The position numbers and the translations under genes are program-made. 64,000 nt of DNA from a virus, in the IMG/VR virus record IMGVR_UViG_3300032893_000025, positions 1-64,000 of that record. The stretch is one strand, 5' to 3'. Positions 12,977 through 60,028 of this stretch are shown here, one piece after another. Every line of letters begins with the position of its first letter. Position 1 is the first letter of the stretch. The notes beneath the pieces were generated by a model, which ran no database searches, had not been told where the DNA came from, and saw only the letters and a program-made list of their open reading frames with translations.

Positions 12977-13523
12977 AAATTACTATTTTACATCTGACTT
13001 ACATTTAGGACATACAAATATTCTAAAATATGATAATAGACCCTTTTCTAGTATAAGAGATCACGATAAAACCATTATTAATAATTGGAATAGTATTGTC
13101 AATGATGAAGATGATATATTCTTTCTTGGAGATTTTGCTTTAACCTATCCTAGTTATGCAGAAAATTTGATGTTACAATTACAAGGAAATAAATATTTCA
13201 TTAAAGGTAATCACGATAAAAAAGATATTCTTAAATTATATCAAAAGTATGGAACTTACTTAGGAGAGTTAAAAGAAATAGAAATTAATAATCAAAAGAT
13301 TGTATTATGTCATTATGCAATGTTGGTATGGAATAGATCTCATCACGGAACTTGGCACTTGCACGGACATTCTCATCATAGTTTACCAATTGATAAAAAT
13401 AGTTTAAGATTAGATGTAGGAATTAATGGATGGGATTATATACCAATTTCATTTGGAAAGGTAAAAGAAGAATTAAGTAGAAGAAAATTTAAATCAACAG
13501 ATCATCATGGAGAAAGAATATGA
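12963..13523 (+). CDS. calcineurin-like metallophosphoesterase
   Basis: SDLHLGH, LGDF, GNHD, CHY and HGHSH motifs. Confidence 0.9.
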   Translation: MMMSKNYYFTSDLHLGHTNILKYDNRPFSSIRDHDKTIINNWNSIVNDEDDIFFLGDFALTYPSYAENLMLQLQGNKYFIKGNHDKKDILKLYQKYGTYLGELKEIEINNQKIVLCHYAMLVWNRSHHGTWHLHGHSHHSLPIDKNSLRLDVGINGWDYIPISFGKVKEELSRRKFKSTDHHGERI

Positions 13524-13572
13524 AGAAAAAGTATTAAATTTTAGAAAATAATCTAATAAATTTACATATACT

Positions 13573-14253
13573 ATGAAAATATTAATAGTAGGTGATGTAC
13601 ATGGAAGAAGTAATTGGGAAAATTGGATAGATGATTCTTATGATAAAATAATATTTGTTGGAGATTACGTAGATCATTGGACTATAAGTAATATGAGAAT
13701 TATTGAAAATCTTAATAACATCATATATTTTAAAAAAGATAATCCTAATAAAGTAATATTATTATTAGGCAATCACGATAACCAGTATATGTTTAGCTAC
13801 TCTTCTCATGGATGTAGTGGGTTTAGATCAGAATCTTACTTTGATTTACATGAACTATTCAACAAAGAAAAAGATTTGTTTCAAGCAGCCTACCAGATAG
13901 ATAATTATTTATTTACTCATGCTGGAGTATCCCAAGAATGGTTTGATAGAGAATACCCCTATAAACCTAAATTAAAAAATTTAGCTGAATCTTTTAATAC
14001 AGCATTTAAAATGAAAGAAAGAAGTTTATTTGATGTTGGATATTCAAGAGGAGGATTTCAAGGTGTAGGCGGAATATTTTGGGCTGATAGAAAAGAAACT
14101 CAATCAAATATGCTAATTGATATACATCAGGTTGTAGGGCATACTCATATAGATAAAATAACCACATATTATTTAAATAATGATACTAATTCTAATACAT
14201 CTATAACTTATACAGATTGTGAAAATAGTCCCTATATTTTAGAAATAAATTAA
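13573..14253 (+). CDS. calcineurin-like metallophosphoesterase
   Basis: GDVHG, GDYVD, GNHD, THAG and VGHT motifs. Confidence 0.9.
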   Translation: MKILIVGDVHGRSNWENWIDDSYDKIIFVGDYVDHWTISNMRIIENLNNIIYFKKDNPNKVILLLGNHDNQYMFSYSSHGCSGFRSESYFDLHELFNKEKDLFQAAYQIDNYLFTHAGVSQEWFDREYPYKPKLKNLAESFNTAFKMKERSLFDVGYSRGGFQGVGGIFWADRKETQSNMLIDIHQVVGHTHIDKITTYYLNNDTNSNTSITYTDCENSPYILEIN

Positions 14254-14270
14254 AAACAATTGAAAAATTA

Positions 14271-14302
14271 TTTGGAAGTAATAAAAATATTTTGTAAGTT
14301 TG
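14271..14302 (+). promoter_or_regulatory. Bacteroidota sigma-A-type promoter for tRNA array 1
   Basis: TTTG (14271-14274), 20-nt spacer, TAAGTTTG (14295-14302); matches the TTTG-N19-21-TAnnTTTG consensus. Confidence 0.8.
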
Positions 14303-14306
14303 TAAA

Positions 14307-14378
14307 ATGAATTTGATAATACGACATATAGAACAACCCCAAGAGCCAATAATTATTGGAAGGAAGAACTATATGTAA
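14307..14378 (+). CDS. leader peptide 1 (23 aa, MNLIIRHIEQPQEPIIIGRKNYM) of the tRNA-array attenuator
   Basis: ORF starts right after the promoter; codons 4-15 correspond only to the six downstream tRNAs; its 3' part is the antiterminator strand. Confidence 0.8.
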   Translation: MNLIIRHIEQPQEPIIIGRKNYM

Positions 14379-14430
14379 AAGATATGTTTTGATTTTGTTT
14401 TTAATTAGACAATACACCCCTTCCAGTAGT
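14352..14430 (+). promoter_or_regulatory. antiterminator helix of attenuator 1
   Basis: AUUAUUGGAAGG (14352-14363) pairs over 12 bp, two of them G-U, with CCUUCCAGUAGU (14419-14430), the 5' arm of the terminator. Confidence 0.75.
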
Positions 14431-14455
14431 GAATACTCGAAGGGGTTTTTATTTT
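14416..14455 (+). terminator. intrinsic terminator (attenuator) before tRNA array 1
   Basis: ACCCCTTC-C-AGTA-gtgaa-TACT-C-GAAGGGGT followed by TTTTATTTT, ending 2 nt before the first tRNA. Confidence 0.85.
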
Positions 14456-14457
14456 AA

Positions 14458-14528
14458 CGAGAGTGGGTTGTGGTGGTAGCATCCTGCACTTGGAATGCAG
14501 AGGGGTAGTTCAATTCTAACATTCTCGA
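14458..14528 (+). tRNA. tRNA-Pro(UGG)
   Basis: Acceptor CGAGAGT/ATTCTCG; anticodon arm CTGCA-CT TGG AA-TGCAG. Confidence 0.85.
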
Positions 14529-14535
14529 CAAATAT

Positions 14536-14607
14536 ACTCAGTTCTTCTAATGGTCAGGAAGGTTGTCTTATACACAACTAATTAAAGTTCAAGTCTTTAA
14601 CTGAGTA
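14536..14607 (+). tRNA. tRNA-Ile(UAU)
   Basis: Acceptor ACTCAGT/ACTGAGT, A73; GTTGT-CT TAT AC-ACAAC; T arm TAAAG-TTCAAGT-CTTTA. Confidence 0.85.
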
Positions 14608-14615
14608 CAATATAT

Positions 14616-14687
14616 GGTGTTTGAAGCATTAATGTGATGTGCTTGACTGTGAATCAAGAGAAGATGGGTCAGTACCATCCTTACACC
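14616..14687 (+). tRNA. tRNA-His(GUG)
   Basis: G-1:C73 pair; CTTGA-CT GTG AA-TCAAG. Confidence 0.85.
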
Positions 14688-14692
14688 CAAAT

Positions 14693-14764
14693 GCTACGTT
14701 CGGCAAGTGGTAAGCCACCAGACCTTCAATCTGGTTATCGTGGGTTCGAAACCCACACGTAGTA
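14693..14764 (+). tRNA. tRNA-Glu(UUC)
   Basis: Acceptor GCTACGT/ACGTAGT; CCAGA-CC TTC AA-TCTGG; GTGGG-TTCGAAA-CCCAC. Confidence 0.88.
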
Positions 14765-14770
14765 CTAAAT

Positions 14771-14843
14771 TGGGATTTAGTGTAAATGGAAACCACACAA
14801 GACTTTGACTCTTGTAATGTAGGATCATACCCTACAGTCCCAA
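14771..14843 (+). tRNA. tRNA-Gln(UUG)
   Basis: Acceptor TGGGATT/AGTCCCA; CAAGA-CT TTG AC-TCTTG. Confidence 0.88.
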
Positions 14844-14848
14844 CTAAT

Positions 14849-14923
14849 AGGAATATAGCTTAATTGAATCAAAGCCCTTGTCTACGAAACAAGAGAGTAT
14901 GGGTTTGAGTCCCATTATTCCTA
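14849..14923 (+). tRNA. tRNA-Arg(ACG)
   Basis: Acceptor AGGAATA/TATTCCT; CTTGT-CT ACG AA-ACAAG. Confidence 0.88.
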
Positions 14924-14961
14924 CAAAGTTAAAAAATACTTTAAAAATAAATACTAAAATA

Positions 14962-14993
14962 TTTGGATGTAATAATAAAATTTATTATATTTG
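14962..14993 (+). promoter_or_regulatory. Bacteroidota sigma-A-type promoter for tRNA array 2
   Basis: TTTG (14962-14965), 20-nt spacer, TATATTTG (14986-14993). Confidence 0.8.
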
Positions 14994-15010
14994 TAGAATA
15001 AAATTAAACA

Positions 15011-15091
15011 ATGCAAAGAAGAAATTGGAATATGGTAGCCATTAATGACGGTAAAACAGGAGTTTACTGGAAGGGGAAATTATATTCTTAA
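15011..15091 (+). CDS. leader peptide 2 (26 aa, MQRRNWNMVAINDGKTGVYWKGKLYS) of the tRNA-array attenuator
   Basis: Codons 3-18 cover exactly the 11 amino acids of the downstream tRNAs; codons 20-27 form the antiterminator strand. Confidence 0.8.
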   Translation: MQRRNWNMVAINDGKTGVYWKGKLYS

Positions 15092-15120
15092 TTTAAATAA
15101 GAAATTATAAGTGCCCTTCC
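15069..15120 (+). promoter_or_regulatory. antiterminator hairpin of attenuator 2
   Basis: GGAAGGG (15069-15075)/CCCTTCC (15114-15120), with nested TTATA/TATAA and TTCTTA/TAAGAA helices. Confidence 0.75.
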
Positions 15121-15143
15121 CAAAAAGAAGGGTTTTTTATTTT
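15113..15143 (+). terminator. intrinsic terminator (attenuator) before tRNA array 2
   Basis: GCCCTTC-ccaaaaa-GAAGGGT followed by TTTTTATTTT. Confidence 0.85.
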
Positions 15144-15147
15144 ATAT

Positions 15148-15219
15148 TGGTTAATAACTCAATGGTAGAGTACTTCTCTGATACAGAAGAGGCTGTAGGT
15201 TCAAGTCCTACTTAACCAA
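15148..15219 (+). tRNA. tRNA-Ile(GAU)
   Basis: Acceptor TGGTTAA/TTAACCA; CTTCT-CT GAT AC-AGAAG. Confidence 0.88.
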
Positions 15220-15225
15220 CAATAT

Positions 15226-15294
15226 TGCGGGTAGTTCTGGTGAACCCCTAGTCTCATAAGCTAGTCAAGAAGAGATCGTAACTCTTACCCGCAA
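15226..15294 (+). tRNA. tRNA-Met(CAU); elongator versus initiator uncertain
   Basis: Acceptor TGCGGGT/ACCCGCA; CTAGT-CT CAT AA-GCTAG; short D arm; lacks the three G-C anticodon-stem pairs of initiators. Confidence 0.75.
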
Positions 15295-15301
15295 CTAATA
15301 A

Positions 15302-15374
15302 GGGAGTGAAGCTAAAGTGGGATAGCTGTGGCCTGTTAAGCCAAGGGGTGTAGGATCATTGCCTACCTCTCCCG
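15302..15374 (+). tRNA. tRNA-Asn(GUU)
   Basis: Acceptor GGGAGTG/CTCTCCC, G73; TGGC-CT GTT AA-GCCA. Confidence 0.85.
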
Positions 15375-15384
15375 CAGTACAAAT

Positions 15385-15456
15385 GAATCATTGGTGTAAT
15401 GGATAGCACAGGGGTCTTCTAAGCCCTTAGAAAGAGTTCAAATCTTTTATGATTCG
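15385..15456 (+). tRNA. tRNA-Arg(UCU)
   Basis: Acceptor GAATCAT/ATGATTC; GGGGT-CT TCT AA-GCCCT. Confidence 0.88.
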
Positions 15457-15466
15457 CTAAATACAT

Positions 15467-15536
15467 TGAGGCACTCATAGGAGTGATAAGCAATCTCCAA
15501 AATTGTGACTTATAGGTTCGAGTCCTGTTGCCTCTG
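15467..15536 (+). tRNA. tRNA-Trp(CCA)
   Basis: GAGGCA/TGCCTC acceptor, G73; GCAAT-CT CCA AA-ATTGT; ATAGG-TTCGAGT-CCTGT. Confidence 0.82.
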
Positions 15537-15541
15537 CTAAT

Positions 15542-15616
15542 GGTTTTGTAGGCCTCTTGGTGAGGAGCTTGACTGTCACTCAAGCAGAATAGAGGGATCG
15601 TACCCCTCCAGAACCG
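15542..15616 (+). tRNA. tRNA-Asp(GUC)
   Basis: Acceptor GGTTTTG/CAGAACC, G73; CTTGA-CT GTC AC-TCAAG. Confidence 0.85.
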
Positions 15617-15622
15617 CGATAT

Positions 15623-15694
15623 GGGCCACTAGCATAAAGGATAATGCTCCTTACTTGCAATGAGGAAGATAGAGTTCGAGTCTCTGTGTGTCCA
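15623..15694 (+). tRNA. tRNA-Ala(UGC)
   Basis: G3:U70 alanine identity pair; CCTTA-CT TGC AA-TGAGG; irregular lower acceptor stem. Confidence 0.82.
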
Positions 15695-15764
15695 CTAATT
15701 CTTTATCTTTGATAGGAAATCCGTAAAGGTCTCAAATACTGAACCAGTTAATCAGTATTTAAAT

Positions 15765-15836
15765 GCAGATATAGCACAATGGCTAGTGCGTCTGGCTTCC
15801 ACCCAGAGGATGTGGTTTCAATTACCACTATCTGCT
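15765..15836 (+). tRNA. tRNA-Gly(UCC)
   Basis: Acceptor GCAGATA/TATCTGC, U73; TCTGG-CT TCC AC-CCAGA. Confidence 0.9.
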
Positions 15837-15841
15837 CTAAT

Positions 15842-15913
15842 GCACCTTTAGTATAATGGTTATTATTTTTCCTTTGTAACGAGAAGATGAGGATTCAATT
15901 TCTTCAAGGTGCT
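15842..15913 (+). tRNA. tRNA-Thr(UGU)
   Basis: Acceptor GCACCTT/AAGGTGC; TTTCC-TT TGT AA-CGAGA with a C31:C39 mismatch. Confidence 0.78.
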
Positions 15914-15917
15914 CTAT

Positions 15918-15988
15918 GACTCTTTAGCAAAGCGGATATGCTCCACTCTTTTAAAGTGGCGGGAATGGTTCAACTCCATTAAGAGTCA
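15918..15988 (+). tRNA. tRNA-Lys(UUU)
   Basis: Acceptor GACTCTT/AAGAGTC; CCACT-CT TTT AA-AGTGG. Confidence 0.88.
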
Positions 15989-15994
15989 CAAAAT

Positions 15995-16070
15995 ACTTCC
16001 TTAGCTCAGTTGGTTTAGTAGCACTTGTTTTACACACAAGATGTCAAAGGTTCGAATCCTTTAGGAAGTA
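15995..16070 (+). tRNA. tRNA-Val(UAC)
   Basis: Acceptor ACTTCCT/AGGAAGT; CTTGT-TT TAC AC-ACAAG; AAAGG-TTCGAAT-CCTTT. Confidence 0.92.
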
Positions 16071-16090
16071 CAAAAAATTTGTGTCTCAGA

Positions 16091-19000
16091 TTATTTATTT
16101 ATTATCTGTTGTGTCAATGACTGAATTCTTGCAGTAGTATTAGTTAAAGGAAACCAATTCTTTATAGCTACCCAAGTTTTAGATTGATCCTTATAAATTC
16201 CTTGATGATACATATCATCCCCTCCTGTTATTAATGTTGTAGCTCTTGCTAGTACTTTTTCTGTATCAGTAATTACTTTAGCCATTGGTAAAGGATCTCT
16301 TAATATAGTTTTAAATTGAATAGGATCAATATAAAAATCTATATCCATCTGCATCCTATTAAGTTGATTAATCCAGAAGAAAGATAAATATTTTATATCA
16401 GATTCATCATCGTCATCATTTAAAATGACTCCTTTAATTAATAAAGCCAATGCTGTAACAGCTATCATAGACATTATTTCTGTTAAATTAGCTCTCATAT
16501 TAGCAGCATCTACATCATCTAATCTAGACAAATTAGTTTTCTGAAAAGCTATTTTTCTTAGTAACTGTAATGTACCGTTAAATACCCCACCAAAGTAGCC
16601 ATATCTATCAAAAAACTGCCCATAACTTCTCCATCTACCTTTCTGTTCAATACCACTAATAGGATTCACCTTACCAGCGTCCATTTGTCCAAGTCTTGTA
16701 TAATATGCATTAATCATCCATTTTCTAAATACTAATAAGGATCTTCCTAATATTGTTGAATTAGCAGGTATTGGAGAGTCTGGATCATAGTTACCATGAA
16801 TATCTTTTATAACCTTATCTATCTTTAATTTAGTATTTGCCTCTAAATTTGATGGCATTTCAACTCCATTTAATAATTCTCCATTATCATTATAAGCTTC
16901 AAATAAAGATATATCTTTTCCATTTAATTTAACTTTAGTGTTTAATAACATAGCTATCATTACAGGAGCCTGATTTAAATATTCAGATCTACTCTGTAAT
17001 GTAAAGGGAGCTAACCAATTAATTCCTTTTTTAACTCTTTCAGATACATATATTTCATTTTGTAGTTCTTTTAGAGTATCATATCTATCCATTAAATGTC
17101 TAACTTTATTCATTTGAGATAAGGTTAAGTTATACCCTTTATGAAGCTGAGCATTATTAAATCTTCTACCATCAGAGCCTTCTATAAGATTATTAACATA
17201 GCCCACTGTGGAATTCATTATAGGGGAGAAAAAATTCCATCCTAATCCCTTTAATCTAACCCACATATTAAGTTGGTCTCCAATTTTAGAACCTGCTTTT
17301 ACTCCTCCTAATTCAGATAATTGCTTTTCTAATTTTCTATCTATTTGTAGAAATTCTTTCTTAGTTATGTTATGTTCATCAAAATCTTTTATGTTTTGAG
17401 CCTTTAAAGCCTCTATTTCTTCTCTTACTTTTTGCTCTTTGGATGTATATACTTTTTTTCCAAATTTTAATTCTACCTTATGCATAGCTTCTCCATAAAA
17501 CTTCTTCATAAAATATTCTACAGAATCTTTAAAGTTATTCAATCCTTTCTTAGAGATAGGATCTCCATATTGGTCATTTATAACTTCACCAGCATTATTA
17601 GTTTCTTGTTCTAAAGCATTATTAATAATACCCTGAGTAATACTCATAGCATCCTCAATTTTAGCTTTATGTTTAAACCCAATAGCCATTAATGAATAAG
17701 CTTTTACTAGTTTTTCTAAATCATTACTTCTTTCATTAGCAACCTGATCTTTAATTTCTCTAGTCCATTCTTGTATTTGTTCTACAGTTGGAGTATTTCC
17801 AGTTTGTTGTTTAAGTTCTAAAGACTTTCTGAATATATAATCTTTAATTATTTTATCAATATTGGTTATATATCTTACTCTTAACTCTCTTTCTCTCTCA
17901 CCTTCAACATCTCTTTTTTCACTAGATTCTGTAGTTACAGATCCTTTAGTTCTTATACTTTCTTTCCATAAATCCCATATAGGAGTTAACCCACCACTCA
18001 TACCATTTTGGGTATACTGTTCTATTAAAGTCTTTTCCATAAAAGGAAGAGTATTAACCTGAAACTCTTCGGTCATATCTGATGGTAAATAAGAATTTAC
18101 TTCATGTAGAGTATCTATGATATAGTTATATAAAGCTAATAGCTTATCATTGTTTTCTATTTTTTCAAAGTTTTTATCATAAAATTCAGTATTCTTGCCA
18201 TTAACAATTCTTCTAGGTACAGTCTTTGTATATCTATTGCTTGGGGTTATATAATCTCCTGCTACTTTTTGTATAGTACCTTCAAAAAAGTTTTCTGCAA
18301 CTAAATAAGGACTAAATTTAGCATCATATTCTCTTATTTTTATTTCCTTAGCAGCATCTTCTAGTAAATCATCGTCTAATTGAGATATAAAAACATCTCT
18401 ATCATCTTTAAATTGTTTAAGTTGCTTTTCAGCAGCTTCTAAATAAAATTTATATCCTTTTTGTCCCAAATTAGTTATTAATTCTTGTCTGTGATTCTGT
18501 ATATCACTATCACTAAAGCTATTTTCATATAAATCCTTATTGGGAAACAATTTTCTAGCATCTAACATTAGAGAGTATTTCTTAGTTTCCGTAATATAAT
18601 CTCTAATAAGTTTATTTTTTTGTTTTCTTCTTTCTTCTGGGTCAGCAATTTCATCAGCAAGGTTTAATTCTTTTTTAAAATTTCTGCTTCTAGCTTTATT
18701 CCAATCGAAATAAGCTTGGGTATATCTATAAGTTAAATCTCCAGTTTTCCTATTATCTGTATTACTTGCTCTTTGAGCAAACAATTCATTAATATCCTTT
18801 TTACTATAAGATTTACCTATTTCTTTAAATACATCATCTAAACCATCAAATACATACTTAGCTTCTTTATGTGTTTCAAAGCTTGCTTCCTTATTCCATA
18901 CAAACATACTTTTAGCTAAGATATTATCTGTTTCACTAATATCTAAAGTAAGACTTGTTAATTTACCAACATCTGTTAGTAAAGCTTTATAATCAACATT

Positions 19001-19707: not shown

Positions 19708-22700
19708 TTACCTACATTTTTTCATTCTATCAAGTATTTCTTCATTAGAAATTAAACTTATTTTATCTTTTAAATTTAACTCTCTCTGATCTAACTTGAT
19801 ATAATAATATTCTTTTTTATTATTTAATCCTATATCTTCTCCTACAGTTGTTCCTATAGTAGCTTTATATAAGACTTGTTCTTTATTAATAGTTTGTGCC
19901 CTTTTAAGCATTGCTTTATATCTATCACCGTTGCTAAATCTATCATCAACCATTAATACTTTTTGCCTACCATCAGAGTTTAATTCTCCGAATCTATTTA
20001 AAGTATCTTCTTTACTTATTGTATTAGGTAATAAATATACTTCTCTATCAGTTATTTTAGATAAATCTATCTCTCTCCATTGATTACCATATTCATCATT
20101 AATAATTTTAACATTGTCTTTACCAAATTGTTTCTCTAATATATTACCTACTTTAATTTCATAGAAAGCTTCAATAGGTTTGAGTTTTTCTATACCTTGA
20201 GATTTAAATTCAGCTTTTTTATCTTCTAGTCTTTTTATTTCACTAGGAGCTTCTTTTATTTCCCCAATTTTTTGATTTCTAACTGATATTTTATGTTCAA
20301 GAGCAATTACTTTTTGCCTATCTTCAACTAAATATCTGTCACTATTAGAAGAATTATTAAATATTGCAATAGCTTCCTCTCTGGTGATTGGTAATATTTT
20401 AATTTGAGGTTTATTTCTTTCTGTATTATATCCATGTATATAATACCCTTCATAATTTTCACCTAATGCATCTCTATGCTCTTGGTATGAATCATAACCA
20501 AAATAGGATTTATTATATATTTCTTTTCTACTATAAGTACTTTCTACTCTAACATAACTATAATCTTCAAATCCATATTTATTTGCAGTTTTTCTATCTA
20601 CAGTTGGTTCTTGAGTTGTTAAATTGGAACTAAAAGTCTTTTTTAAAGTAGTTATTTCTTTACGAAGATTGTTTATCTCTTCTTCTAATCCTGGTATAGA
20701 ATCTTCCTTACCTAAAAATGTTTGTGTATGTTCTATAGCTCTATTTATATTTAATATCTCATTGGCCAATGTTTCGTGTCCTTCTACTTTAGCAGCAGTT
20801 TCACCTTTAGGAAATAATACTTTCTCATATCCTTTCTTAGCACTATCTTGAATAATAGATTTAATAAAGAATGTAACCCAGTTATTATCTTTGTTAAGGA
20901 GTTGGAGAAATTGATTTTCTGGACTATTATCAGAAACAAAGTTCCATCTTTCTTTACCGGTTAAAGATTTATAATCTCTACCTTTCTGAAATAAATCAGA
21001 TTGTATTTCTAATATACGTCTATCTTTAGTTATATTCCCACCAATAGTATTTCTTTTAGTTCTAGGTTCACCTGTAGATAAATCTGGTTCCTCATCAGTA
21101 GTAATAGTAGCATTGTTTACTTTAGTATCACTTCTAAACCAACCTATACCTTTATCTGTACTAAATTGAGCATGCCCTTTAATATTAGGTGTAATTAATG
21201 GAGTAGATATTTCATTTTCAGTATAGTTAGTACCGCCCGGTACTGTTAGATTTGAATAATAAGATGTAGATTGTTGATTCTTATATCTCTTAGATTCTAA
21301 GTAAGTTTCAGCTTCTTTTCTTGTATTAAAAGAAATATAAGCTCCATCATCTTCTTCAACAATATACTCAGTTTTTATAATTTTCCCTTCTTTATCTTTA
21401 AAATGCGATTCTTCTATGTTTCCAGTAAGAGAATCAAACTTTTTCTTAGCAGTATTAACTTCAACAGTATAACTATAATTAGCAAGAATAGAAGATATAA
21501 TTTCTTCTTTGGTCATTCCATCTTTAGCAGATTCTTTGAACATATCAACCTGTTCTTTAGGAACTCCTTGTTTCTGAAGATCGTTTAACCAACCTTGTAA
21601 TTTAGAAAATTCAAATTTATTACGTTGAATATTTTGTAAGCCTTTTATCAATTTTAAAGTATAACTAATAGCAGCTTCGTTAATTCCAGGATATAATGTT
21701 TCTATTGTCTGGCCTTCTTGTGTGAAAGCTTGAGTAGTATCATGTTCAATAATAGTTAATACATCATCTATAGCGGAAGCTAACATAGAGTTTTTATTTA
21801 CATTTAATCCTAAAGCATTAAAGAATTGTTTTAATTTATCTAAAAATACTTCAAACCAAGGTTTGCCTTCACTATTCGCAGGTATTTCATTAAGTATCTT
21901 CTGAAACTCACCATCAGTCATTAACATAGTTACAAATTCTTCTAAATTTGTAGCTCCATAATATTTACTTAATTCTTCATCAGTCATAGATTCATACTTC
22001 TCAGTTCTTTTAGCTATAAACTTATCCATAACTTCTTTAGTAATGGATGATTTATGCCTATTAAAACTTTGATTTAAGCTATCTATAGCATCTTTAACTT
22101 TAGGATCTAGTTTTTCTCCTTTACTCCAAGCTTGAATAGCAGGTATAGTAAATCCATGCAATACTTCATGTAATACAGTTTTACTTAATTCATTTACTGA
22201 AGTATGTTTTTCATTATCTAAATTAATTTTTACAGTACCATTAGCATATCTTCCTCTTACTTTTTCAAGTTCTGTAGATAATCTTAAATTTCTATCTCCG
22301 TAATTATTTAATAGTTCAGACGCTAATAATTGATAATATTGGTCATCTGAATTAATAACTATATTTTCAAGTACCCTTTTAACATTACCTTTATCAACTA
22401 TTTCAAGTATATCTCCAGGTTTCTTAACTTTAGTAGATTCTGGATTAATTGTAGTTTCTGAATAGTAGTTGTTATCTATTGGAAATCTTGAAGTAGATTT
22501 ACTAACTTCAGCTTTATTTGTGTTAGTTATAAAACTTGAAGTAGCTACTTCATCAGTATTAGCATTAAATTCATCTATACCGTTAAATCCTAAATTATCT
22601 ACTCTAAAATACATAGGGTAACCTAAAGAATCATTTCTTCCATAATATCTAAATAATACATTCTTACTACTTCCTTTAGGTTTCATAGGATCATTAATAG

Positions 22701-25700
22701 CTAAAAATTCAGGAGGAACTTGGTCTTGCCCTCTTTTAACATAGAAATCATCATTCTTTAAACTAAATCTTGTAATACTAACTCTTCCTTTTGGTAAGTT
22801 TTTATCCTTAATTACATTATCTATATCCTTTGTTCCAACTCTTTCAACCTTATCAGCATTATGTTGTATATACTGTTCGATAAAGTTCTGTAACATCCAG
22901 TAAGGTAATTCAAATGAAGGAATCTTCATAAAATCTGAATCTTCGAATTTCTTATTAGAGTATAATTCAGATAAACTATCAGCAAATCCTATAGAATATA
23001 AATAAGATGGCGGTATGTGTTTAATATATTGAGTAGCTTCTTGTACACCCCCAGACAAATAAGCTGCTTCAACTAAGTCTTTGAATAACTTTCTTGTAGT
23101 GTAATTAGTTCCTTCAATAGCAGTATCATTCGTATATAAATCTATAAAAGAAGTATATGTAGCTAAATTAGCAGCGTCATCTCTTACAGCATCTATTTTA
23201 ATTGTAGATGGTCTACCATTCTTATTTATATCAGGTTGTACTTTACTTAAAAAAGGATGATCTTTATATTTAGATTGAGCTTTTACTTGTTTAACTATAG
23301 AAGCTAAAGATTTATTACTGTCGCTATCTATAAATAATCTTTCTCTTTCTAAATTAAGATCTCCTCCAAATAATCCTAAATTATTTAATGTATACAAATA
23401 AGATTTAAAATTATTCCATATATCTCTTCTAAAATCAGCTTTACTAACTATACTTCTGTCTTCTCTACCAAGTAATTGTTCAATCTTGTTAAACATGTAA
23501 GTTATACCTTGTTCATTATAAGGTAGAAGTTGTTTCCACAGTTTATTATTTTGAAGTAACCCATAATATGTAGAAAAACCTTGGATTGTTGTTGGTTTAA
23601 TTAAATTTCCTAAATTATCAAATTCTCCCAATATAGATTCTATATTTTCTATATTCACACTTTGTAATCTTTTAACTGCTTCTTCTTTAGATAAAGTTTC
23701 AAATAAATTCTTACCCAATCCTTTACTATCTGTATTAATAGCTGATTGTATAGTACTTAAGGTTTGAGATGGTTTATCTAAATAAAGCATTTGATCTAAA
23801 GCAGTCAATTGTATATAATTAAAGTCTCCTGTTGGTTCTAATATAGAATTCTTTAAATTCTCTAAAGACAATCCTTTTCCTTTACTATATTTTTCATCAT
23901 ATAAATTACTATCATAATTTGTAGGTCTATATTTAGATAATATTTCTGAATATACTTCATTTTCTATATTAGGATTAAACTCTTTAATAGAAGATCTTTT
24001 AGATTTAAGTAAATTAAAGTAATCTTTTATAATAGGTTGAGCCATAAAATATCCGACTTCTTCTTCAAATCCTAATTGTGCTAGTAAGTTAGCATACCTA
24101 AAAGTTTGAGAATTTAAATTAAGTTTATCTAATACTTGTAACTTTTCATTGTCTACAGATACAGACTGAAGACCTGATATAATTTCTGATTTATAATACT
24201 TACCACTTAATGTTTTATTTCCACTTAAATCTCCATCAGATACTTTGTTACCAAATCTAACTCTAAATCTTTGTTTAATTCCTTCTGGAGTATTATAGAA
24301 TAAATACATTCCTTTATCCTGTATAGCAGAATTAAACATAGATGCATTACTTGTTATACCAGTACCAGATTTACCAGCTAATGCATTAAATCTCTTAGTC
24401 ATTTGGTACTTATCTGATAAGGCAGTGAAGTATTCATCTTTAGTCTTTTTATTCTGAATTTCTTTAGCTATTTCTTCGAACTTCCATGAACTTAAAGGAG
24501 TGTGTATTTGTTTTTGAACTTCTTGATTAATGTTTTTATGAACTGCAAGTCTTATATCTAATAGTTTGTTTTGTAGAGATTTGTTCCATACATCATCAGC
24601 CATTTCTAAGAATGATGCTTGTCTATTAAGTTGTCTACTTTTTCTTTCATCAAGTTCAAAAGCTAAATTTCTTAAAGTAGATTCTTCTAATTTTAATATA
24701 TCTTCCTTAGAACTAAAATCTATCTTTTCTAACTTTTTACCATTAAGGTAAGTATTATACATATAGGTGTATAACTTATCCACATCAAAGTCAGAACCCA
24801 TCTGAGCCAAGTAATCTCTTGTAGTAACAGCTATATCCCCAGATGTTTTAGGTAAAAATCCTACTATTTCAACATAACTTTGAGAGTTTAATCCTTGATT
24901 AGGAATACGCATACCAAAGATTTGCAATATTTCTTCAGGTAATTTAGTCATATCTATTTTCCCATCTTTCACAAACCTATTTATATCTAATAAATTTCCA
25001 TTATTATCTTTAAATTTCCAAGGTATTAGTATTTGTGCTGGTAATACCTTACCTTTTTCTACTCGAGATGGTAATAATTTACCTGTCCATTTATCTGTAT
25101 AAATAATTCCTTGAATATCTTTAGAAGCTTCTTCATCTACAACTTTAGCTTTTTGGTATCCTTCCTCTGTAGATAATACAAAAGAATTACCTTTAAACTT
25201 CATTTTTAGTACTCTATTCTTAACAATAGCGTTAAGTAAAGCTTCATATTTAATAGCTGAAGGACTATAAGGTAAGAAAGTTAAATACTTATCCAATTCT
25301 ATACCTTCCATATCAGCTATAGAATACCCTCTTAACATACCTTCTTCCTTAAGAATATCTCTTATTGCAGGTATATTTAAATTTCCAGACTCATCATAAA
25401 CTTCTTTTTTTAAACCTTCAAATCCATTCTTATAAAGTTGTTCATAATGTTCTTGATAAATCTTTTCTAAATCTCTTCCTTTGTAAGAATTATTATTATA
25501 TTCAAATCCATCTATATCATGTAAATTAGTAAATATATTCTTATCAGCCTGAGAAACCCTATTAATAGCATCTTTAAGTTCATCATAGGGAACATCTTGT
25601 TGCAATCTAAATCCTTTTCTACTAAGTATTTTAGTTGAATTATTTATCTCTTCAGGTGTTAATTCTTTTATATTATTATCAGAATCCCATAATTTAACAG

Positions 25701-28700
25701 GAGTTTTATAATTTCCTGCTTTAATACCTGATGAAAAAGCTAATCTTTGAATATTATTCTTTTCCATCATTATTCTAATCTTATCTAAATCATTACCTTT
25801 AGTAAGTTCAGGGGTTAGCGGATAAGCAGATGTTTTAATGTAAATTCTTTCTCTTATACCAAGTTGTTGATTAAACTGATTATTTACATATACAGGTTTA
25901 TGTACTTGATACACTAAATTTTCCCATTCTTTATTTCCACTTAATTCTTTATTTAGTGCTGAAGTATAGTAATAATCACCCTGGGATATTTTTTTCTTAA
26001 TAAATTTAGTTGCTGCTTTGTACAAATCTTCACTAATATTTCCAGATTTAAATTCTACATATAACCATTCGGGGAATGTAGTCCATTCTTGCGCATTTGT
26101 ACCTTCTTTTAAAGTTCCTGTAGCAAGATAGTCCTTTGCTCCATCTTTTCCTAAAAGTTCTTGTAGTTGGTCTATATTTAAAGAATTTATAGCCCTATCA
26201 TCTACCATTAATTGTCTGTAAAAACCTTTATTACTATCAGCTATTTCAGTACCAGGAGCTATATCAGCAGCTAATCTCTTACCTACATTAATAAAAGTAT
26301 CTTCTACTTGAGATAATATATTTGTTGCTTTTGATTTGTAAAATAAAGCAGGATCTCCAACAATACTCATAAAAGTATTAGCATTACCTATTAGATACTG
26401 ATAAACCATATCTGTAGCAATAGCTTTATTGTAGTTTTCTTTAGCTACTCCAAGTAATACTTTTTTATCTTGTAATACAGTAGTATCTATAAAGTTTGAT
26501 TTATCTCCGTCTATAATACCATAAGAATTCCAATCAGTTAATTTTTCATTAACTAACTTATCTACATACTCTTTTATAGTATCCTTTAAAGTTGTATTCC
26601 ATTTATCAGAGAATATATCAGAGTTTAAATTATCATTGGAATCCCAAATATCTTTTAACTCGTTTAATTTTGGAAGTAGTAAAAATTTATGCCCACCTTG
26701 TTCAAATTCTTTATTATTAAATTCTACACCAGATTTCTTCAGTTCTTCCCATTTTCTTATTCTATTTATTTCAGGTAATACTAATTGGTCATATAAAAAA
26801 TCTATACTATTATCTTTTAAATTTCCATCAGTAGTAAAATTAATAGGGGCTGCAATAGTTTTAATTGTCATTGCAGTAGTTTTATCTGATGTAGTAGGAT
26901 ACAATAGTATTATAACTCTACTATCAGTACCAGAATTATCAGGTATAGATCCTGTTAGTAATCCTAACGAAGTTAATTCATACTCATCAGGATTAAGATT
27001 ATATAATTCTCTTCCATCCCTTGTTTTAGTACCTATTTTTTTAAAGGCTTCTAACCCTATAGTTCCAGCTTCAAAATTAGAATTAAACACATAGTTTCCT
27101 TCTCCTATATTATTTAACCACCAACTTTTCTTTTCAAATGGACTATTAGAATCAAGTATTTCTTTAGCTAAACCATTTTTAAGATCTCTTACAGTGTTGA
27201 TTAAGTATTTATTTTTTCCAAAACTATAAATACTTTTACCGCCACTTCTAAAAGCATTGCTAAATACAGCGTTGTCATTATACTTAGCGTCCATTCTGGC
27301 TAAACTCTTTATAACACTTTCGTCTAAAATATTATGTTCATCTAATGATAATTTACCTTGAGTAGTTAGTGCTTTATTTAATACATTAAATACAAAGTAA
27401 TTATCTAATAATAATTTATCAAATTTAACAGTATAAGGTGCTCCAAATCTATCAGTTCTTTGTATACCTTTAGACACTAATTCATTCCAAGTTTGATTAT
27501 TAATACCAATACCAAATTCTTCTAACCATTTTCTTGCATCATCAGTATTTTTAGATTCTTTTATCTTTTCATATCTATCTTTTAATTCTTTAACTTTATT
27601 TTCATCTAATATATATTGTCCTTCATTGTTAACTTTAAATAATCCTGTTTCTTTAACATTAGTATTCCAGTTATCAAGTACTGCATTATATATAGAATTC
27701 TCATTAACCAAAATAGTCTTTGTAGAATATTTTTTGGTTTCTTTATCCTGTGACCACATTACCATATAATGTTTTATCTGGTGATTAGTCATAGATGTTA
27801 CAAAACCATTTTTTTCCTGTTCTTTAGATGATTCTAATTTAGTAATAACTTGTTCTACCCAAGGATGTGCTTTAGTATATTGTCTTAATACATCTGTAAT
27901 TTGGTTAAAATCTGGTTCTAATCCAGCAGTCCAAGTTTGAAGTTTTTCATAAACTTCATTAAAATCCATTACTTCAGCTTCTTTAAGAATACCATATACA
28001 GGATTCCCAGAAGAATCTACTTTATTAATATCTGAAAAAAATCTCTTAACTTGTTGGGTTAAACTATCTTTAAGGTTGTGTTCGTAACTATTTTTATCCC
28101 AATCAGTTTTTTCATTATCTTTAGTTTCAGATATTTCCATATCTTCACCTTCAGGTAATGGAGTAACTATTCCTTCAATCTTATTAACTTTATAAATAAC
28201 AGATCTCTCTATTACATTCCATTTATCTATAATGGGTTTAAAAAATTGATCTCTATACTTAATTTGTATAGGCTCTAATTCATTATCAGAATATTTATTA
28301 AGTTCTGATAAATCATCTTCAAATTGAGTTTTATATTTATTTAAATAATCATTTCTAAGCTTTACAATATCTTGAGTAGGATTGTTGTATAAGTCTCTAA
28401 TTATATTTCTTGTAATATGATTAGTAATAGATTCTTGTTTATAAGCTCCTAACTCACTAATTAAAAGTTTATCTGAAGACTTCTGCATTAAAGACTCATC
28501 CCCAACAGTAGTTGGTAAATCAAAAGCACTTTCATTGAGATTGGTCTTAAGTTTTAACTTATTTTTCGTCTCAATTTTAGTAGATTTTTCAGACGAAACT
28601 TTAGTTTTCTTTTCTTCTATTTCTGGTGTTACTTCCTTACCTAATATATTACTATAATCTACTCTTACTACAGACTGTACTGCATAGATTCTTTTACCAT

Positions 28701-31700
28701 TATCTAATTGTTGTCCTTTTACATTTGTCTTAGAAGTATTATATAAAAAGGTTTTGTAAGATATTGGACTGATTTTATCATCTTGTCCAATAAATGCAAT
28801 ATTTTGTGTATTGTTAAAAGCATTTAAATTAGTATTAATTCTAAACTTATGTAAATTTAAAGCAAGTTGTCTTAATACCATTTCTTTATGTTCCTGATTT
28901 TCTTTATTAAGGAAGTAAACTTTTTGTTCATCTTTTTCATTTAATAAAGCAAACTCAATAGAACCTTTAACTGTTGTATAATAACTTCCTTTAGGAATAT
29001 TATTTATAATATCTTTTAAATTACTTTTCCCAGTATTATACCCATGAATAAATAATTTAATATAGTTATCTAATCCTCTTATATCAGATATGTCGTAACC
29101 TGTTATTTCAAGAACTTGTTTAACTACTTCAGGATTTTCTCCAGATAAATAAGCATCTATAGCTTTTATTATAGATAGTTTAATTTGATTACTATATTCA
29201 CTATTACCTATAGTATCTTTAAACACAGGATAAGCTAGCCTTTCTCCATTTTGCAATGGTAAAACTACATAGGTAGCACCACTAACCAATCCTTTAGAGT
29301 TACTTAAATCTTCTCTATAATTCTTTAAATCTCCTGTACTAGTAGCTATATCAATAACAATATTATCATTACCTAACGATTCAGTTAAATTAACTGTTTG
29401 CCCTTTAGTAAGAGTAAATAATTTACCGGAAGTTTTATCTGTTATATTTGTTTTAAAAGATCCATTTTTAACTATATAATCTCTTATAAGTTTTAAATTT
29501 TCTTTATCTTGGTCTAAATCTCCATAAACATTGGAATCATTAATCCATTGTTCTGTATGTAAAAAAACATTTGTAGGATTGTTTTTATAGTATACTCTTA
29601 TAGGAACAAGACTATTATATTTTTCAGGAGATAATTTACCTTTTACAGAACCCCAGGTAACAGTTTTATTACTTGTTATGTCTTCTGTATATACTTCTAT
29701 CTCAGGGTTATCTTCCAATCTTAACTCTACTTCATCCCCAATATTAAAATTATCTGGGTCTAATATAACCTGATCTGCATTAGTATGCAATTCATTATTT
29801 ACATTAGTTTTATATAGTGTTCCTAACATTACTCCTCTTTCATAATCTCTGGATAAATAAGCTAGAGCATTATACCCATCAGTTATTTTCTTTCCTTCAT
29901 ACACAGGAGTACCATCAAAATCTTTAGTTGTAGCATAATTAGAATTAGAAACTTCTCTAACTATATCATCACTACTTGTATTTATTTGTTTAACTTTAGA
30001 TTCATCAATATATTCTGGGTCAATAACTACTTTACTATTTTCTTCAGTATCTACTTCATCTATTTCATTTTTAGTAACTGTTACAGGAGCAACTCCACTA
30101 GATATTATATTAGCAGTATGAATAGATCTATCTAAAGAAGATGAATAAACTTTAGGAGTTATCCCTAATTTATTATGTAAATCATTGGCTTCTTTTATAC
30201 CTCTTTTATCTAGTTGTGCGTTATCACTTCTAAAGTTTCCTTTTTTATTATCTTCTGTTTCTCCATGTCTTACTACATGAATAGTTTTACCAGTATTCGT
30301 AGTTATATCAAATGTACTACCTGTATTACTATCCATTTCTGAATATTCTTTTCTAAAATTTTTATCAGATAAAAAATCTACATTTTCATTATTATTCCAA
30401 TATCCTTTATCTTTTAACAATTTAATTAAGTTAAATATAGTATTATGAGTGGTAATAGTACTATTATTTTCTCCTTTATCTATAATATCTTTTACAACTG
30501 AAGTAACTCTATTATATGCATTGGAAAAACTTTCTCCTCCGCCTATCATAGATTTATCAGGATTATTAATTATATTATCTTTTACAATATTATCTTTTTC
30601 TTTTGTTTGTTTGGTTCCCGTTTCTGAACCTAAATCTATAGTGTCTAATCTATTATCTACTTCAACATTATTATTTGGAGTAATTTTATTTATTTTAGGT
30701 TCTCTAGTTATAGGAATAGAAGTTTCTTTGGATTCTTCTTCTTGAGCCATTCTATCAAATTCTGCTGAATTCTCAGGAGAAATACCTTTTTCTGCTTCTT
30801 CTTGTTCTAATATAGCATCAAAATCATCCTTTTGTCTTTTCTTGTTTTTAATATTTTCAACTTTAGCAACCTTTTCCTGGCTCTTAATAGTTTCTTCAGT
30901 TTTATTTTGTGTTTCAGATGCTCTCTTATTATAATTATCTGTAGTTTCTGTAACTCTTTTTTCAATTCTATTTAATCCTTCTTGAGTTATAGATTCTTTA
31001 TAGGCATTTGCTAATTGAGTTCTCTTATTATTTAGTTGTATATAGTCTGTAACTAATTTAGTAGCATTTTCTCCTGTAGACTCTAAATTAATTGCATGAT
31101 CTTTTACAACCTTATCTAAATTATCTAGGTTTTCTTTAGTTTTATTTAGTAAATAAGTTTGAGTAGCACTAAATATTTCAGGAGATTTAGCAATCTGTAA
31201 ATTTAATTCTCCAATTCTTTTATTTACATTATCTATGTTTCCAGCCATATCCCATAATACAGTTCTTGCATCATTAGAAATAGTAGGAAATCTTAAATCT
31301 AAATTTTCTTTAAGTTTTGTTAAGTTTTTAGCTTCGGTTATTAACTTATCTATATATTCTCCAGTACTTTTTTTATCACTAGTAGTAGGATCAATACCAA
31401 AAGTTTTTTCAAATTCTTCTTTGGGCAATTGTTTTAAATCATTTAATTCATCTTCAATTAAATCTCCTTTACCGGTTTCAATTCTACTAAGTACATAGTT
31501 TTTAAATAAATCATGTTGCAGATTTTTATATTGGTAAATATCCCCAGACTTTATAGCTTCATCCATATCTCTTCCAATAGATTCGGATCTTATCGCTTCA
31601 TCTATTAAAGGTTCATTCTTTTTAAATATATCTGAAACTTTATATTTATTAAGATAATCTACTGCATTTTTAGTAGCTTCATCTTTTTCTCTATTCTCTT

Positions 31701-58519: not shown

Positions 58520-60028
58520 TTAATAACCAAGTGCTTTATAAGTAGATGGCATGTAACGTCCTGTACGTAAAGGATTTTTAATCCTGACAGAAGTTATACA
58601 CATTTTACTTAATTGGTAAGCATCTTGCATATCAGCTACAGGATGTGGTACAGATCCTAGTCCGCCTGGGCTATAAGGATCACGGAATCCAGGTCTATAA
58701 GCCATGAATTCTTCCCAACCTTTAATACCTACTTTAGCAATATTAGGTTCTCCTTTATCTGAACCAAAATCCCAGATATTGTAAATGTAAGAACTGATAT
58801 AACCACCATTTGGATTAGAAATCTTACCAGCGGTTACTGGACTATCTAACATCTTATCAACCATCATTTCAATAGTAATACCATTGATCCAGTCAAATTT
58901 AGTTATTTGTCCTTCAGTTACATTAACTTTACCATTAACAACTTGAACGTTATGGTCACTTCTTAACCAAGCATAAGTAGCCATTTTAGCGGCAACAGCT
59001 TTATGGAATTGATACATACCAAATTCTCCAGTTGTTACTAAGAAACGTCTATCACTTTCATCTAACTTGTTATAAGAGATACCCATTAAGAAATCTGTAA
59101 AGCCATCTAAGTTAAATACATTGTAAAAACCTAAGTTAGAACCAGCCATTTGGTCATAAAGACCATAACCAGCTTTAACAGGATTACCAGATTCACCAAA
59201 GATTTGAGTAGTACCATCAAGACCTACAGTATTTTTACCATAAAGAATAACTCTTGCCTGATCTCTCTTAGCTTGTTTGTAGAATTCCCATTCTAATTTA
59301 TTAATCCATGCTTCCTGAATTTTACCTTTATCATCTTGGAATTTAAAAGCTAAAGGAATATTCTTACCAGCAGCAATTATAGAAGAAGGAATAGTCACAC
59401 TTTTTCTAATATGAGTGATCCAGTTTTGTAGTTCAAACATACTTTCAAAATGTATATCACTACCACGCAATGACATATCTTCTTCAACAGGAGCATAAAG
59501 TGATCCATAAGGTACACCAGCTAGTAATTCTTCTACAGGCATGTAAGATGTTGGGCTACTTCCGTAAACCTGAACTTTATACCTCCAATAAGAACCAACT
59601 TGTGTAGGATCTTCCATAATACGTACCTGATAATCTTCAGGTCTTAACCCTGCTATAACAGATGGAGCACTAAACCATTTTTCTGCAAAATACAGATAGA
59701 ATGGTTGAAAGTTTTCCCCTACTTTAGCAGTAGTAGATGAACTTACTTCAGTTTCTGATAACCCATAGGTAGCTTTTACCAATGGAATATTTCTTTCAGA
59801 TGTACCGCGTAAGTACCATTTATATACTGGTTGATCTGTATAGATAGTAGGATACTTATCTACTACAGCAACGAGATTATCATCCCCGTTAACCATACTA
59901 TATAAATTATCAATAGTTTGTGATAGAACTGCCGGCCCTTTAGTGTATCCTATATAGGCCAGATTGTTCCACTTTGTAAAACCAGCCCAGTATTTGGGAT
60001 TGGTCACTTGAGTTACCGCAATTTTCAT
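58520..60028 (-). CDS. major capsid protein (crAss-like)
   Basis: 502 aa; YFAEKWF, GESGNPVKAGYGLYDQM, TGEFGMYQFHKA and GFRDPYSP; after the scaffold gene and before a terminator. Confidence 0.88.
   Translation of the reverse strand: MKIAVTQVTNPKYWAGFTKWNNLAYIGYTKGPAVLSQTIDNLYSMVNGDDNLVAVVDKYPTIYTDQPVYKWYLRGTSERNIPLVKATYGLSETEVSSSTTAKVGENFQPFYLYFAEKWFSAPSVIAGLRPEDYQVRIMEDPTQVGSYWRYKVQVYGSSPTSYMPVEELLAGVPYGSLYAPVEEDMSLRGSDIHFESMFELQNWITHIRKSVTIPSSIIAAGKNIPLAFKFQDDKGKIQEAWINKLEWEFYKQAKRDQARVILYGKNTVGLDGTTQIFGESGNPVKAGYGLYDQMAGSNLGFYNVFNLDGFTDFLMGISYNKLDESDRRFLVTTGEFGMYQFHKAVAAKMATYAWLRSDHNVQVVNGKVNVTEGQITKFDWINGITIEMMVDKMLDSPVTAGKISNPNGGYISSYIYNIWDFGSDKGEPNIAKVGIKGWEEFMAYRPGFRDPYSPGGLGSVPHPVADMQDAYQLSKMCITSVRIKNPLRTGRYMPSTYKALGY

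Follow-up and report, generated by a model that had tools for sequence, protein, structure and literature searches.

A candidate leader-peptide attenuator ahead of a phage tRNA array

INTRODUCTION

Why should a phage place a tiny open reading frame (ORF) and a terminator hairpin directly ahead of a block of its own transfer RNA (tRNA) genes? This question is raised by a locus in the IMG/VR virus record IMGVR_UViG_3300032893_000025, of which the first 64 kb (the window, to which all positions below refer unless another contig is named) were analysed from a contig of 79,335 bp. The reasons for which phages carry tRNA genes are open, and current ideas include compensation for codon usage and the replacement of tRNAs that are lost to decay or to anticodon nucleases. 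In the window, six tRNA genes (array 1) follow a 23-codon leader ORF (leader 1) and an intrinsic terminator, and we argue that this element (cassette 1) is probably a ribosome-mediated, or leader-peptide, transcription attenuator that gates array 1 and places the supply of phage tRNAs under feedback control.

RESULTS

Leader 1 and the tRNA genes of array 1

The leader ORF (14307–14378, plus strand, as are all parts of the cassettes and arrays of the window) starts with ATG, ends with the stop codon TAA (14376–14378) and encodes the peptide MNLIIRHIEQPQEPIIIGRKNYM. The original prediction, made from the letters of the window, had claimed that 12 consecutive codons of this ORF match the tRNAs of array 1, and sequence inspection together with ARAGORN and Rfam bore this out exactly: the sensor stretch (codons 4–15, 14316–14351) reads ATA ATA CGA CAT ATA GAA CAA CCC CAA GAG CCA ATA, and array 1 (14458–14924) consists of tRNA-Pro(UGG) (14458–14529), tRNA-Ile(UAU) (14536–14608), tRNA-His(GUG) (14617–14688), tRNA-Glu(UUC) (14693–14765), tRNA-Gln(UUG) (14771–14844) and tRNA-Arg(ACG) (14849–14924). 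Five of these genes were called by ARAGORN, and tRNA-His was called by Rfam (32.6 bits, with a cut-off of 29) and by ARAGORN only at a lower threshold; this tRNA is weak, with two U–U mismatches in its acceptor stem. As had also been claimed, codon 11 completes the set of six amino acids (I4, R6, H7, E9, Q10 and P11). The CCC codon at position 11 needs the U34 of tRNA-Pro(UGG) to read the whole codon box; if wobble is applied strictly, the match falls to 11 of the 12 codons.

The run that begins at 14316 is the longest in the genome, over all six frames, to be composed of array-1 amino acids (14 codons; the next best has nine), and likewise the longest that can be decoded by the six array-1 anticodons (12 codons; the next best has eight). 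Runs of 12 codons are expected at 8×10⁻³ per genome at the amino-acid level and 2.6×10⁻⁵ per genome at the codon level. In addition, leader 1 uses codons that are scarce in the long ORFs of the phage, where CGA makes up 1% of arginine codons, CCC 5% of proline codons and GAG 13% of glutamate codons.

The codons that follow the sensor stretch (codons 16–19, 14352–14363) form the putative antiterminator strand, which ends 12 nucleotides (nt) ahead of the stop codon. The earlier claim of a 12-bp pairing between this strand, which opens with codon 16, and 14419–14430 in the 5′ arm of the terminator holds (10 Watson–Crick and two G–U pairs), and the duplex is far better than expected, at −16.6 kcal/mol compared with −6.4 kcal/mol for dinucleotide shuffles (z = −6.1; 0 of 300 shuffles were as good). 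The intrinsic terminator itself (14416–14455) consists of a stem (14416–14423/14439–14446) and an inner stem (14425–14428/14434–14437), followed by TTTTTATTTT; its bulged hairpin (14416–14446) is worth −17.5 kcal/mol and the core −15.2 kcal/mol, and it lies 38 nt past the leader stop codon and 12 nt ahead of tRNA-Pro. Upstream of the ORF we find a candidate Bacteroidota-type promoter (14271–14303), in which a −33 TTTG (14271–14274) and a −7 element TAAGTTTG (14296–14303) are 21 nt apart. The end of the −7 motif is separated from the ATG by a gap of 4 nt, a layout that is shared by the second cassette described below; at 0.81 per kb per strand, such promoter motifs are frequent in a genome as AT-rich as this one.

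Ribosome position and the fold of leader 1

We folded the leader RNA with a ribosome mask of 28 nt (A site −15 to +12) placed at each codon and computed pair probabilities at equilibrium. The free RNA shows a terminator probability of 0.20 and an antiterminator probability of 0.79, and the antiterminator form is the minimum-free-energy fold; in this fold a second contact, AACCCC (14335–14340), pairs with GGGGUU (14442–14447) in the 3′ arm of the terminator. We saw no 1:2-type anti-antiterminator pairing in the folding of leader 1. With the A site at codons 3–6 the terminator probability falls to approx. 0, at codon 7 it is 0.23, and from codon 8 through to the stop codon it is 0.88–1.0. The strong ‘on’ state depends on the contact between 14335–14340 and the 3′ arm, and a ribosome at codon 8 or later hides this contact. 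For early stalls the masked folds agree with the original expectation that an early stall would leave the antiterminator free. Stalls at codons 8–12 touch on the condition that the original prediction had itself named as refuting it, since the strand 14352–14363 is then free and the terminator is nevertheless dominant at equilibrium; with the second contact masked in this way, the terminator form is better by 2.6 kcal/mol (−23.3 compared with −20.7 kcal/mol).

In silico growth of the transcript adds the order of events. With the ribosome stalled at codon 5, 9 or 11, the 12-bp antiterminator forms once 14424–14432 has been made, and for stalls up to codon 11 it does so before the 3′ arm of the terminator exists; with the ribosome at the stop codon, the antiterminator never forms. 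The barrier for refolding from antiterminator to terminator is approx. 15 kcal/mol, as estimated along a direct path, which is an upper-bound heuristic. In these models, stalls at codons 3–7 would switch the RNA thermodynamically and stalls at codons 8–12 only kinetically, read-through in the latter case being predicted because the antiterminator forms first and is then held by this barrier. Co-transcriptional folding also produced a small hairpin (14365–14390, together with the U-rich run behind it) whose loop contains the stop codon and which, speculatively, may be a pause site for RNA polymerase.

A second cassette with a complementary codon set

A sister cassette (cassette 2, 14962–15147) follows array 1 and has the same parts: a promoter-like TTTG and TATATTTG, a leader ORF of 26 codons (leader 2, 15011–15091), a terminator (15113–15133) with a T-run behind it and, beyond these, array 2 (15148–16071), which cassette 2 would gate. 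Array 2 comprises Ile(GAU), a CAU tRNA, Asn, Arg(UCU), Trp(CCA), Asp, Ala, Gly, Thr(UGU), Lys and Val. Array 2 can decode approx. 80% of the leader 2 codons, and array 1 can decode 8%. Of the leader 1 codons, array 1 can decode 59% and array 2 36%, and those that array 2 reads are confined to codon 2 and the tail codons 16–23. The division extends to isoacceptors, since the sensor of leader 1 contains four ATA codons and CGA, which correspond to the Ile(UAU) and Arg(ACG) of array 1, and leader 2 contains ATT and two AGA codons, which correspond to the Ile(GAU) and Arg(UCU) of array 2; the chance of this eight-codon assignment, as estimated from the codon usage of the genome, is approx. 0.002.

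Under the same masking, cassette 2 behaves as a full four-region attenuator: its leader has a 1:2-type helix, and its terminator probability is 0.99 when untranslated, 0 with the A site at codons 4–15, 0.7 at codon 16 and 0.99 from codon 17 onwards.

The tail of leader 1 (14352–14375, ATT ATT GGA AGG AAG AAC TAT ATG) is decoded nearly throughout by array-2 tRNAs, and arrays 1 and 2 together decode 95% of the leader 1 codons, the exceptions being TTG and TAT. With array-2 tRNAs in short supply, ribosomes would linger on the antiterminator strand, which would favour termination ahead of array 1; the match could reflect cross-talk between the circuits or could have arisen by chance (about 0.06).

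Several genes of array 2 were less straightforward to assign. ARAGORN reads the gene at 15842–15914 as Tyr(GUA), but an Infernal alignment places UGU at the anticodon, which makes it a tRNA-Thr; the lack of a long variable arm also favours Thr, and leader 2 has ACA as well as TAC and TAT codons. The tRNA-like genes at 15226–15295 (CAU, with an atypical T-loop) and 15467–15537 (CCA) were missed by default ARAGORN and by Rfam (E ≤ 10) and were found with ARAGORN at -ps85; an internal ATG and two TGG codons in leader 2 would fit these two genes. A spacer of 71 nt (15694–15764) is not tRNA-like and contains a 9-bp A/T-rich hairpin (approx. 15734–15760).

Recurrence of the cassette in other phages

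We found cassettes of the same build in two further contigs that are crAss-like by their capsid proteins. The first (L041, 99.8 kb) has two, each with a TAnnTTTG promoter motif, an ORF of 25–26 codons and a terminator with a T-run, followed by tRNAs. One of its leaders, …RFRYTKYSSCKGTSS…, precedes Thr, Lys, Arg-ACG, Phe, Gly, Tyr, Cys, Ser-UGA, Arg-UCU and Ser-GCU; the other, …VINIWNQIDVDQA…, precedes Val, Ala, Asn, Met, Trp, Asp, Ile and Gln. The second contig (L142) has three cassettes. In all seven within-genome comparisons that the window and these two contigs allow, the leader is decoded best by its own array (7/7; chance approx. 0.002).

A blind scan of IMG/VR, in which loci were selected by a T-run followed by a T-loop motif at tRNA distance and the content of any leader was ignored, returned at least 113 loci. 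Terminator hairpins ahead of tRNAs were then located, and leaders were called as the longest ATG-initiated ORF of 10–60 codons ending within 100 nt upstream; of the 26 arrays that stand behind a terminator and have three or more tRNAs, 24 are preceded by such an ORF. Across these 24 cassettes the mean fraction of leader residues that are among the amino acids of the cassette's own array is 0.408, compared with 0.263 ± 0.020 when leaders and arrays are permuted, and none of 200,000 permutations gave a value as high; z = 6.7 once the two cassettes of the window are removed. The other two frames give 0.28 and 0.23, so that the match is frame-specific (Wilcoxon p = 9×10⁻⁵), and it is individually significant (p < 0.05) in 12 of the 24 cassettes. 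Leader peptides are not conserved in sequence from one cassette to another; it is their composition that follows the array.

The architecture of these 24 cassettes is also uniform. Complementarity between the leader and the terminator arm has a mean z of −2.26 (t = −6.7), and in 17 cassettes the end of the antiterminator falls close to the stop codon, in an interval that runs from 12 nt ahead of its first base to 9 nt past it. The distance from stop codon to hairpin is 21–48 nt in 22 of them (extremes −12 and 62), and that from hairpin to tRNA is 6–20 nt in every one (24/24).

Individual members of the blind sample illustrate how closely leader and array correspond. In a 411-kb jumbo phage (L182, 2377–2530, plus strand), a leader of 28 codons containing …LSLtLLLLSSLLLSWLL… precedes tRNAs for Trp, five Leu and one Ser(GCU); 18 of the 27 codons after the start are for Leu, Ser or Trp, and all five serine codons (AGY) and all 12 leucine codons fit anticodons that are present, which makes this the cleanest isoacceptor-level example of the sample. 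In other contigs a …PQPQQHPQ… leader precedes Pro, His and Gln, and a …KHKHFsKssKWF… leader precedes Lys, His, Phe and Trp. Only some of the contigs in the blind sample have crAss-like status, and the design is therefore spread over unrelated phage groups.

One of the phages that is not crAss-like (L112, 67.7 kb) carries, at 145–293 of its reverse complement, a leader (…HTEQRLQEP…) that resembles leader 1, with the same 4-nt gap from its TATATTTG (TAnnTTTG) to the ATG. Its array holds Pro, Glu, Gln, His and Arg; Ile(UAU) is missing from this array, as are ATA codons from the leader. The tRNAs are 59–68% identical with their counterparts in the window, and the resemblance of the two leaders could, as judged from these sequences, reflect distant homology or convergence; we do not claim recent shared ancestry. 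The same contig also has an odd class-II-like tRNA of 82 nt (610–691).

Searches among relatives and reference phages

Nearer relatives of the window offered less. The closest relatives of the neighbouring 1198-amino-acid protein are about 50% identical with it, and five closer relatives have, across their contigs, either no tRNA match or just one or two isolated ones. Scans of IMG/VR with the proteins of both flanking genes, taken singly, returned no relatives, and in an alignment-based scan that gave 76 loci, L041 alone has cassette-bearing tRNA arrays adjoining the flanking gene. A DNA pattern made from the part of leader 1 that is shared with L112 matched, in IMG/VR, only L112 itself and three chance sites; in a metagenome collection it gave 34 chance matches, all without tRNAs. 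Cellulophaga phage phi14:2 has no tRNAs.

Two reference genomes showed peculiarities around their tRNA genes. In Bacteroides phage crAss001 (L190, MH675552), a TAnnTTTG motif is followed, within approx. 1650–1681, by an ORF of four codons (ATG ATT AGA AGA TAA) without a terminator, and then by the tRNAs, of which Gln is the first and Arg-UCU the next; this ORF might be what is left of a leader, or it might be due to chance. In IAS virus (L229, NC_049978.1, 2427–4825), RefSeq places 18 tRNAs on the minus strand, but ARAGORN assigns them to the plus strand, and it was the plus strand, too, that matched the tRNAs of the window; the RefSeq strand is probably an annotation error.

The phage and its genome

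The G+C content is 26–31%. A replication-type gene block occupies the plus strand, and a block with ORFs of 1198, 4442, 1241 and 1218 amino acids lies on the minus strand. The ORF of 4442 amino acids (19708–33036) is a candidate giant virion RNA polymerase gene, and 58520–60028 encodes the major capsid protein (phrog_11589 match at 3×10⁻⁷⁹). The tblastn matches to this capsid protein came from Cellulophaga phage phi14:2 and gut crAss-like phages (approx. 30–32% identity over 99% of the protein), and all named hosts among these matches are Bacteroidota. The sequencing runs listed for the DNA of the window are two wetland-metagenome DNA runs and no RNA run. One of the two is probably the source, and the contig from the other is identical with the window across 14014–14937, so that this interval offers no natural variants. 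Because of these capsid matches, the Bacteroidota hosts and the wetland runs, we assign the source to a divergent environmental crAss-like phage (Crassvirales).

The contig has 17 tRNA genes, six in array 1 and 11 in array 2. They all lie within 14458–16071, at the convergence of the two gene blocks, and we found no further tRNA elsewhere in the 79-kb contig, which is possibly incomplete. The contig therefore does not bear out a companion prediction, by which a third cassette would serve tRNAs for Leu, Ser, Phe and Cys. Between 13000 and 18000 and between 15215 and 15925, no non-tRNA Rfam family reaches its gathering score, and there is no T-box match.

DISCUSSION

How might such a cassette work? 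Transcription would start at or just upstream of the ATG at 14307, and a ribosome would be on the 23-codon leader while RNA polymerase heads towards the terminator. If the cognate tRNAs are scarce, the ribosome would be slowed between codon 4 and approximately codon 12 (ATA, CGA, CAT, GAA, CAA and CCC), leaving 14352–14363 free to pair with the 5′ arm of the terminator as soon as this is made, and polymerase would read through into the six tRNA genes; in the earliest stalls, 14335–14340 would additionally capture the 3′ arm. If decoding is fast, the ribosome would reach codons 16–24 and cover the antiterminator strand, the terminator would form and array 1 would be left untranscribed. Since a larger supply of array-1 tRNAs would remove the stall, the result would be a negative feedback loop on tRNA supply, and cassette 2 would do likewise for the other 11 tRNAs. 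At the level of sequence, each attenuator feature that we looked for is present in the cassette and correctly placed relative to the others, except for a clear 1:2 helix in leader 1, and the comparison with independent phages strongly favours this reading. The parts and their order, the codon match, the competing pairings and the recurrence are thus shown, and we infer translation of the ORF, the site at which transcription starts, the coupling of ribosome and polymerase, and the response to tRNA levels.

Several points weigh against this mechanism. When untranslated, leader 1 favours the antiterminator and so is ‘on’ by default, unlike the trp attenuator of Escherichia coli. For stalls at codons 8–15 the terminator wins at equilibrium, and half of the sensor would thus depend on kinetic trapping, although by textbook values the trp attenuator, too, has an antiterminator weaker than its terminator. 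Equilibrium folding with the ribosome mask also gives no switch in many of the other cassettes and is unfit as a general detector. The mRNA may be leaderless, as the −7 motif 4 nt before the ATG suggests, though this motif is common. The transcribing polymerase may be that of the host or the phage's own, and the latter would perhaps ignore hairpin-plus-U terminators; to our knowledge, the coupling of transcription and translation has not been established in Bacteroidota. Finally, the cassette is absent from close relatives, so the conservation of leader 1 has no comparison set, and the tRNA clusters of crAss001, IAS virus and cr126_1 stand behind plain promoters, without a leader–terminator cassette.

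The leader could instead report on translation in general, that is, on whether any ribosome completes the ORF, with its codon match being secondary; host shut-off, a shortage of ribosomes or failed initiation would then switch the array on whenever overall translation is impaired. Cassette 1 fits this account, since its untranslated leader folds as the antiterminator (terminator 0.20) and the absence of translation alone predicts read-through, but cassette 2 terminates when it is untranslated (0.99). Moreover, a reporter of this general kind would leave unexplained why the leaders hold the amino acids and isoacceptor codons of their own array and not those of the neighbouring one, and it does not account for the outcome of the 200,000 permutations; we consider it unlikely. 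It is far less likely still that leader 1 is a functional micropeptide, or that its RNA acts untranslated through T-box-like codon–anticodon contacts with tRNAs. Nothing specific speaks for either, the peptide being translated in any model, whereas the absence of any non-tRNA Rfam family at its gathering score within 13000–18000, the lack of peptide conservation across cassettes, where composition alone follows the array, the frame specificity of the match and the position of the cognate codons in frame between start and stop all speak against them.

The match could also be due to chance, in which case the terminator would do no more than shield the tRNA genes from transcription entering from upstream, and the ORF would be a meaningless one in an AT-rich spacer. 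Short ORFs are indeed common in AT-rich DNA, the promoter motif is common too, and a simple terminator scan missed terminator 1. Against this stand the 2.6×10⁻⁵ runs expected per genome and the z of −6.1 for the antiterminator duplex, together with the recurrence of the design in unrelated phages, whose leaders track differing sets of tRNAs, and the frame specificity of the match. On these statistics, chance is very unlikely. The attenuator thus remains our preferred reading of cassette 1. As to its wider reach, we lean, with some reserve, towards the view that unrelated phage groups, crAss-like phages among them, run their tRNA blocks as demand-driven circuits by means of translated, isoacceptor-level ‘test strips’, with two circuits that share out the 17 tRNAs without overlap in the phage described here.

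Multivalent leaders, to which the phage cassette comes closest in its proposed mode of action, are familiar from enterobacteria, in which thrL responds to Thr and Ile and the ilvGMEDA leader to Ile, Val and Leu, alongside trpL, hisL, leuL and pheL. Like the thr and ilv leaders, the phage cassette would combine a short leader rich in regulatory codons with an intrinsic terminator and a mutually exclusive antiterminator set by the position of the ribosome, and one leader would sense several amino acids. Unlike them, it would regulate tRNA genes and not biosynthetic enzymes; its sensor lists six amino acids, mostly with one to four codons each, and is isoacceptor-specific; its product would feed back on decoding itself, in the setting of a Bacteroidota phage; and in leader 1 there is no clear 1:2 anti-antiterminator, the untranslated RNA is predicted to read through and the mRNA may be leaderless. 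Leader-peptide attenuation of a gene of the translation apparatus is known from the E. coli pheST–himA attenuator with its pheM leader, but pheM senses a single amino acid (Phe) and controls a synthetase, whereas the phage cassettes would control tRNAs. T-boxes bind uncharged tRNA directly, without a ribosome, and control synthetase and amino-acid genes; they resemble the proposed circuit in that transcriptional read-through is set by the state of a specific tRNA, but the codons of the phage sensor sit in a translated frame and there is no T-box match in Rfam.

The nearest published case is the cryptic trn tRNA operon of Anabaena PCC 7120, likewise an accessory array, which is off by default and is induced under translational stress (PMC8421152). 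That operon is repressed by TrcR (PMC10272220), and it differs from the phage arrays in being controlled by a protein repressor and in residing on a cellular megaplasmid, not in a phage; the 2021 text of the former paper (PMC8421152) makes no mention of a leader peptide, attenuation or a terminator. Full-text searches, in which most subscription journals are not covered, returned no published leader peptide or attenuator ahead of tRNA genes, and older accounts are possible. What would be new, as far as the sequences indicate, is that the regulated genes are the tRNAs which read the sensor codons, giving a closed negative feedback loop on decoding capacity.

If this is true, then the tRNA supply of these phages is regulated on demand and the phage would top up exactly those tRNAs that are running short, possible sources of shortage being a mismatch with host codon usage, the decay of host tRNAs in infection and tRNA-cleaving host defences. 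For annotation, the cassette marks a class of tiny ORFs ahead of tRNA arrays that gene callers ignore. Leader-peptide attenuation would be extended from amino-acid metabolism to the machinery of translation, and each leader would offer a readout, from sequence alone, of the codons that the phage ‘worries about’.

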